From positions 1-12,728 of IMG/VR virus record IMGVR_UViG_2585427793_000006: a stretch of DNA of 12,728 nt; one strand, written 5' to 3'. The notes beneath the pieces were generated by a model. It was not told the origin of the DNA. It searched no databases and saw nothing but the letters and a program-made list of their open reading frames with translations. Numbering within the stretch: the stretch's first letter is position 1; each line of letters starts with the position of its first letter. A program made the translations under genes and the position numbers. Positions 1,192 to 1,377 of the stretch are shown here, piece after piece. The DNA comes from a virus (Duplodnaviria > Heunggongvirae > Uroviricota > Caudoviricetes).

Positions 1192-1377
1192 ATGGACTCT
1201 GTTCGCTGTAAAAACTGCAATAAGTTACTGTTTAAAGGAGGTTTTAAGCATATAGAAATTAAATGCCCTCGCTGTAAACGTTACATTGTCATATCGAATG
1301 CCAAAGAGCATCCCACGGAGCTGTATTGTGGGAAAAGAGAAGAAATCACGCATTCTGACAAAACCCTGCGTTATTGA
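1192..1377 (+). CDS. com: Com, zinc-finger translational activator of mom
   Basis: 61-aa product [61 protein letters not shown] with CxxC...CxxC at residues 6/9 and 26/29, recognisably Mu Com-like. A G-rich Shine-Dalgarno (GGGGGA) lies just upstream. The GTG at 1159 proposed by the ORF track lacks an RBS and is probably not the start. Confidence 0.9.
1311..1333 (+). promoter_or_regulatory. Predicted mRNA hairpin (TCCCAC, 11-nt loop, GTGGGA) with the candidate mom GTG start in the 3' arm and GGAG in the loop. Candidate Com-controlled translation initiation region
   Basis: Inverted repeat read from sequence. It is consistent with the known Mu mechanism in which Com binds mom mRNA and opens a structure sequestering the mom initiation region. 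Confidence 0.4.

Follow-up and report, generated by a model that had tools for sequence, protein, structure and literature searches.

In the Caudoviricetes virus record IMGVR_UViG_2585427793_000006, the mom gene overlaps the end of the com gene, and the locus raises the question of which codon starts mom and whether this codon is masked in the mRNA. We analysed positions 1 to 12,728 of the record (the whole stretch of 12,728 nucleotides, hereafter the window). An open reading frame at 1286..2035 contains TTG 1286, ATG 1298 and GTG 1328, all in one frame. The original prediction, made from the letters of the sequence alone, took GTG 1328 as the best start, pointed out that the length of the protein depends on this choice, and placed the codon in a hairpin that resembles the one known from phage Mu. 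In Mu, the hairpin called the translation inhibition structure (TIS) carries the GUG start in its stem (PMC6483171, Nowacka et al. 2019), and the start signals are exposed when Com binds an adjacent short hairpin (PMC6483171, summarising the Mu model of Wulczyn & Kahmann and of Hattman).

The com and mom genes and their surroundings in the window

The com gene (1192..1377, plus strand) encodes a 61-aa translational activator, a zinc ribbon of the type CxxC...CxxC, which matched Pfam PF10122 (Zn_ribbon_Com) with 30.5 bits against a cutoff of 22.9. The protein shares 73% identity with Com of Mu, and all four Cys are present. When counted from GTG, the mom gene (1328..2035, plus strand) encodes an adenine methylcarbamoylation enzyme of 235 aa, which matched Pfam PF25680 (Mom) with 252.7 bits and shares 97% identity with Mom of Mu over 231 aa. 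NCBIfam gave no match for Com or Mom. The mom gene overlaps the last 50 nt of com on the same strand, in the +1 frame relative to com. In BLAST searches, Mu, D108, SfMu and several Muviruses of Yersinia matched the DNA at 1202-2100 with 87-88% identity.

Since the BLAST match to Mu begins only at 1202, the DNA upstream of com in the window is unrelated to Mu Pmom. The same holds for a perfect 11-bp inverted repeat at 1091-1118 (GACGATCGATA / TATCGATCGTC, with a 6-nt spacer), which lies about 75 nt upstream of com and contains two GATC sites. As a candidate operator, this repeat could serve either a C-like activator or Dam/OxyR-type regulation of the promoter of com-mom. A sigma-70 promoter scan of the plus strand upstream of com found nothing useful, as expected if the promoter is activator-dependent like Mu Pmom. 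The genes next to com on its upstream side, at 48-1050, are one for tail-fibre assembly (PF02413) and a truncated open reading frame of the type 'prophage tail fibre N-terminal', the latter marked as a pseudogene by PGAP in E. coli E300082.

On the other side, the com/mom element ends at 2116 (...GCGCGCTTTA; ...GATTTTGCGCGCTTTA). The E. coli E300082 prophage is 99.7% identical to the element of the window. The DNA past 2116 differs between the window, E. coli E300082 (where it is a truncated mhpA) and the IMG/VR locus L019, which fits the right end of a transposable prophage like Mu. In the window, the DNA past 2116 is the interior of a phiP27-like tail gene (L43 homologue), and the region 2117-11733 is 95.8% identical to phiP27. 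At 2116/2117, a transposable Mu-like prophage seems to have inserted into a second, phiP27-like prophage, the junction being its right end; this junction was absent from the complete E. coli genomes searched.

The GTG codon at 1328 lies in the stem of a hairpin inside com

Reading of the sequence and an inverted-repeat search both showed that the DNA arms TCCCAC (1311-1316) and GTGGGA (1328-1333), 6 nt each and 100% complementary, are separated by 11 nt (GGAGCTGTATT). The local order of the DNA is CGAATGCCAAAGAGCA, then TCCCAC, GGAGCTGTATT, GTGGGA and AAAGAG. In the RNA, the hairpin (TIS, 1311..1333, plus strand) consists of the 5' arm UCCCAC, the loop GGAGCUGUAUU at 1317-1327 and the 3' arm GUGGGA. 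The Shine-Dalgarno (SD) sequence GGAG (1317..1320, plus strand) starts the loop, 7 nt before GTG 1328, and the GTG codon itself (1328-1330) is within the 3' arm. The coordinates given for this pairing and its GGAG-containing loop in the original prediction were exact, and the sequence likewise confirmed the placement of GTG 1328 in the 3' arm and of the hairpin inside com. Indeed, the whole RNA element, comprising the TIS and the neighbouring hairpin described below, falls within 1192-1377.

The stem also formed when the region was folded as RNA. RNAfold lengthened it by two G-U pairs (1317-1327 and 1318-1326), in which both G's of the SD concerned can pair with U1327 and U1326, and the isolated hairpin had a free energy of about -8.5 to -9.3 kcal/mol. 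In contexts of 71 to 501 nt, the five inner Watson-Crick pairs had pairing probabilities of 0.97-0.99, and the basal pair 1311-1333 had a probability of 0.67-0.86. The predicted P(unpaired) of GTG 1328 was 0.00, lower than at any other of the 15 gene starts in the window. Only the open reading frame 4345..4680 has a start codon that is comparably paired, with a predicted P(unpaired) of 0.01. The fold prediction does not support a complete masking of the SD, whose P(unpaired) was about 0.57 and of which only the two G's were partly paired. A cmscan of 1000-2400 against Rfam (E <= 10) found no family over 1286-1340, the only matches being chance ones to eukaryotic snoRNA and lncRNA families. We also considered the stem as an intrinsic terminator, and rejected this reading because the stem is followed by AAAAGAGAAG, without a U-run; a terminator scan of 1000-2200 was empty.

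Directly 5' of the TIS is the putative Com-binding hairpin (1298..1311, plus strand; GAAUGCCAAAGAGCAUCCCACGGAG), with the stem AUGC (1298-1301) / GCAU (1308-1311) and the 6-nt loop CAAAGA (1302-1307). The Com target described in Mu is 5'-CC(N)2-3GAG-3', with a six-residue loop closed by a C-G pair, within GAAUGCCUGCGAGCAUCCCACGGAG (PMC6483171). The window has the motif CC-AAA-GAG, that is CC(N)3GAG, at 1301-1308 with the closing pair C1301-G1308, and alignment placed GAAUGCCUGCGAGCAU as its Mu homologue. This hairpin is marginal when folded unassisted (-2.4 kcal/mol, probability 0.01-0.56). Its 5' arm begins with ATG 1298, and U1311 is common to both helices, pairing with A1298 in the Com hairpin or with A1333 in the TIS.

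The start codon of mom

About 130 Mom loci were collected from GTDB genomes and IMG/VR. One IMG/VR search contributed the best 80 of about 500 loci, and the scan of genome contigs contributed 4; most of the diversity comes from IMG/VR. Among the matches listed, there were 41 distinct com-mom junctions of the type [U/C]CCCA[C/U]...GUGGG[A/G], and the equivalent of GTG 1328 was invariant in all 41.

The annotations of mom conflict, in agreement with the original prediction, which called the start ambiguous. The protein has 245 aa from ATG 1298 and 235 aa from GTG 1328. The Mu record AF083977 has the RBS and the mom start annotated at the homologues of 1317-1320 and 1328, respectively. The D108 record (L002 500-1237) and PGAP begin mom at the ATG equivalent to 1298, and in RefSeq WP_064751668.1 of E. 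coli E300082 (L134 7298-8035) the start is also the homologue of 1298, giving 245 aa. Protein databases contain both forms of Mom, and some of their representatives (P0002 and P0009) carry N-terminal extensions. Recombinant Mom of 231 aa without the initiator Met has been described (PMC7261163); since this protein was recombinant, it gives no verdict on the native start.

If mom started at ATG 1298, its coding region would include the hairpin, and initiation would not be masked. ATG 1298 has the advantages of being the stronger codon, of opening a longer reading frame and of being the annotated start in the records above, and members of the Mu-proximal clade have ATG or GTG as the triplet at -30 relative to GTG 1328. 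Nevertheless, we consider this start improbable. Neither of the two upstream codons (TTG 1286 and ATG 1298, 1286..1300, plus strand) has an SD; for ATG 1298, there is no purine-rich sequence of this kind within 15 nt upstream (acattgtcatatcga). In three loci (L005, L006 and L048), the reading frame is interrupted by TAA or TGA between the equivalent of ATG 1298 and GTG. An ATG or GTG at -30 is found just in the Mu-proximal clade; in the lineages of L094, L096, L097, L126 and L128 the triplet is GCA, AGC or GCG, and there is no upstream start. In the L097 clade, which has GCG at -30, no in-frame start occurs between the upstream stop and GTG. The 9-residue extension from ATG is also less conserved than the rest of Mom, having 3 differences from Mu in 9 residues compared with 6 in 231 (Fisher p = 0.003). 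Furthermore, most Mom homologues, distant ones included, begin at the GTG position, with M-G-K or M-x-x-K-x-S-R. The ATG triplet itself is accounted for by its place in the 5' arm of the Com hairpin, where it covaries with its partner; this role explains why close relatives keep the triplet although it is not the start.

The invariance of GTG, the in-frame stops, the SD and the divergence of the extension therefore indicate that Mom starts at GTG 1328. The choice of this codon in the original prediction is supported by its invariance, by the SD spacing of 7 nt and by the Mu annotation. Sequence comparison thus suggests that the ATG-start models (RefSeq/PGAP and D108) probably carry a spurious 10-residue N-terminal extension, and other extended Mom models in the databases are probably too long by 10 codons or more. 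The practical value of the analysis is in annotation, where the start should be corrected to GTG 1328 and the protein to 235 aa.

Conservation of pairing at the com-mom junction

An inverted repeat such as the TIS may also arise by chance, or as a by-product of double coding by the C-terminal tail of Com and the N-terminus of Mom, and would then have no regulatory role. Perfect 6-bp hairpins with 3-11-nt loops occur 60 times on the plus strand of the window, as against 29.5 +/- 6.7 in mononucleotide shuffles (about twofold more), which amounts to about one per 200 nt. The fold energy of the TIS is likewise without signal: the stem forms with GTG fully paired, yet z was -0.45 for the 71-nt fold and +0.35 for the 151-nt fold. 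Because such hairpins are common and the z-score is unremarkable, the significance of the TIS rests on its position, homology and conservation, and not on thermodynamics. The arms also lie under two reading frames and most of the stem pairs are invariant, as double coding would have it.

The 41 junctions contain 20 distinct junction-core sequences, which form the alignment A3. In these 20 junction types, 100% of the TIS cells were paired, compared with 33-63% when the 3' partner columns were slid, and all changes in the stem preserved pairing. Pair 1311-1333 is UA in 13 types, CG in 6 and UG in 1, and the six C-G cells may represent one ancestral event. Pair 1316-1328 is CG in 19 types and UG in 1, the change of C1316 to U leaving a G-U pair. 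The remaining four of the six TIS pairs never vary and are therefore uninformative on pairing. Two-sided change was seen at one TIS pair only, and the covariation support for the TIS is accordingly modest. The Com hairpin, on the other hand, had two-sided changes at all four of its pairs, with 96% of cells paired. Position 1311 covaries with both of its partners: where it is C, positions 1298 and 1333 are both G. Both hairpins were predicted unaided by RNAalifold from the 20 junction types.

Among relatives, the TIS loop is 11 to 20 nt long and unrelated in sequence, and the arms are essentially fixed. In the relatives with longer loops, a GGAG, AGGA or AAGGAG block is kept 7-10 nt before GTG. 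The GT of GTG is part of the com codon NGT, whose amino acid is Cys, Ser, Gly or Arg depending on the lineage, and the GT itself never varies. The change at position 1333 replaces Lys with Glu in Com and keeps the pairing. The third base of a Pro codon inside the stem is invariant, and the third base of a Thr codon just outside it varies. Judging from these codons, constraint on the Com protein does not explain the conservation of the arms, which is partly confounded by the double coding of com and mom.

The persistence of pairing while the Com residues encoded by the arms vary, and the freedom of the loop in length and sequence while every stem change preserves pairing, both argue against a by-product of coding. 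In addition, the identical arms in Mu are the described TIS (PMC6483171). We thus regard an inverted repeat without a regulatory role as very unlikely. Mom lineages with protein identities as low as about 75% still have the architecture of Com hairpin and TIS, with changes that leave the pairs intact. This pair-preserving conservation provides modest independent evolutionary support for the two-hairpin model, which has hitherto been based on in-vitro work with Mu.

Masking of mom in the wider Mom family

In a small sample of nine Mu-type lineages, the predicted P(unpaired) of the mom start was 0.00-0.02. In the distant com-linked types L127, L129 and L131, likewise a small sample, the predicted fold masks the SD and not the start codon. 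Predicted masking was ambiguous in L130 and L007. The SD-pairing hairpin is GUCUCCGA...UCGGAGAC in L127 and GCUUCCU...AGGAAGC, around a small internal hairpin, in L131. The L007 locus, from Magnetospira, has a Com-type hairpin, ACGC-CAGGGA-GCGU, a compensated version of the Mu stem AUGC-...-GCAU.

Mom homologues without com were also observed, four in IMG/VR (L099, L102, L104 and L110) and two of the type found in Aeromonas phage pAEv1818 (L053 and L133). In five mom genes of this kind (L099, L102, L110, L133 and that of pAEv1818), the start had a predicted P(unpaired) of 0.15-0.53 and was not strongly masked, again in a small sample of predictions. In one group without com, mom is immediately preceded by a palindromic region rich in GATC. 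In pAEv1818, mom follows a Q antiterminator gene and a terminator-like hairpin and has a TTG start, before which lies a vestigial com-like stretch (GAGCAC.CCC...AAAAATCACG).

Discussion

We conclude with high confidence that the hairpin at 1311-1333 is orthologous to the Mu mom TIS and that Mom starts at GTG 1328, giving a protein of 235 aa. A start at TTG 1286, the first possible one in the frame and the one that opens the longest reading frame (1286..2035), is extremely unlikely, since it has no SD, its P(unpaired) is 0.10, and in Mu its homologue is CAT with an in-frame TGA downstream at -33.

With GTG 1328 as the start, the locus would operate as follows. In the predicted local fold, GUG 1328 and the three bases following it are paired with UCCCAC at 1311-1316, and the SD GGAG sits in the TIS loop, partly closed by the two G-U pairs. 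The later steps are proposed by analogy with Mu. The com and mom genes would be transcribed as one late mRNA, and Com made from this mRNA would bind the upstream hairpin at 1298-1311. The binding would destabilise or melt the TIS and leave GUG free for the 30S subunit, and Mom, which is toxic to the host, would be produced only after Com has accumulated late in lytic growth. Both the binding of Com and the Com-dependent translation of mom in the window sequence are thus attributed to it from the example of Mu.

Because U1311 belongs to both helices, stabilisation of the Com hairpin should remove the basal TIS pair. We tentatively propose a minimal strand-exchange switch, in which the binding of Com captures the basal nucleotide of the TIS and, in the wider Mom family, masking moves from the start codon to the SD. 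This is a possibility that we hold with considerable doubt; if true, the strand exchange and the shifting mask would refine a known system slightly, in its mechanism and its evolution. Otherwise, the locus is the textbook com/mom translational switch of Mu and holds no new biology. The Mu-type element is already known (Wulczyn & Kahmann 1991; Hattman et al. 1991; Hattman 1999; Nowacka et al. 2019), and the one described here is an intact, ordinary relative in a Mu-like prophage.

The likeness to Mu that the original prediction had claimed is borne out by the 88% DNA identity, by the identical arms and GGAG, and by a position homologous to that of the annotated RBS and GTG of Mu. In a four-way alignment, the arms, GGAG and GTG were identical between the window and Mu. 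Both have the TIS arms UCCCAC/GUGGGA, with GUG in the 3' arm and an 11-nt loop that contains GGAG; both have the same gene pair with the +1 overlap; and both have the Com-hairpin stem AUGC/GCAU with a 6-nt loop of the form C-NNN-GA. They differ in the tail of the TIS loop (CUGUAUU in the window and AAACAUU in Mu) and in the loop of the Com hairpin (CAAAGA and CUGCGA, respectively). The window Com, 73% identical to that of Mu, is one residue shorter. The window, unlike Mu, also lacks a gin invertase gene and an invertible segment between com and the tail-fibre genes.

Outside the mom systems, a com homologue is found directly upstream of an adenine methyltransferase gene in FluMu (HI1523), Pnm1 (NMA1821) and B3 (ORF48), and possible Com binding sites have been reported at the 5' end of such com-linked methyltransferase genes (PMC3299994). 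In FluMu, Pnm1 and B3 the downstream enzyme is a Dam-like methyltransferase, whereas in the window it is a true Mom. In other systems with RNA-binding translational activators, an initiation region sequestered in a hairpin is released by a trans-acting factor. Compared with these hairpin-opening activators, the activator here is a zinc-ribbon protein that is encoded on the same mRNA and has its site within its own coding sequence.
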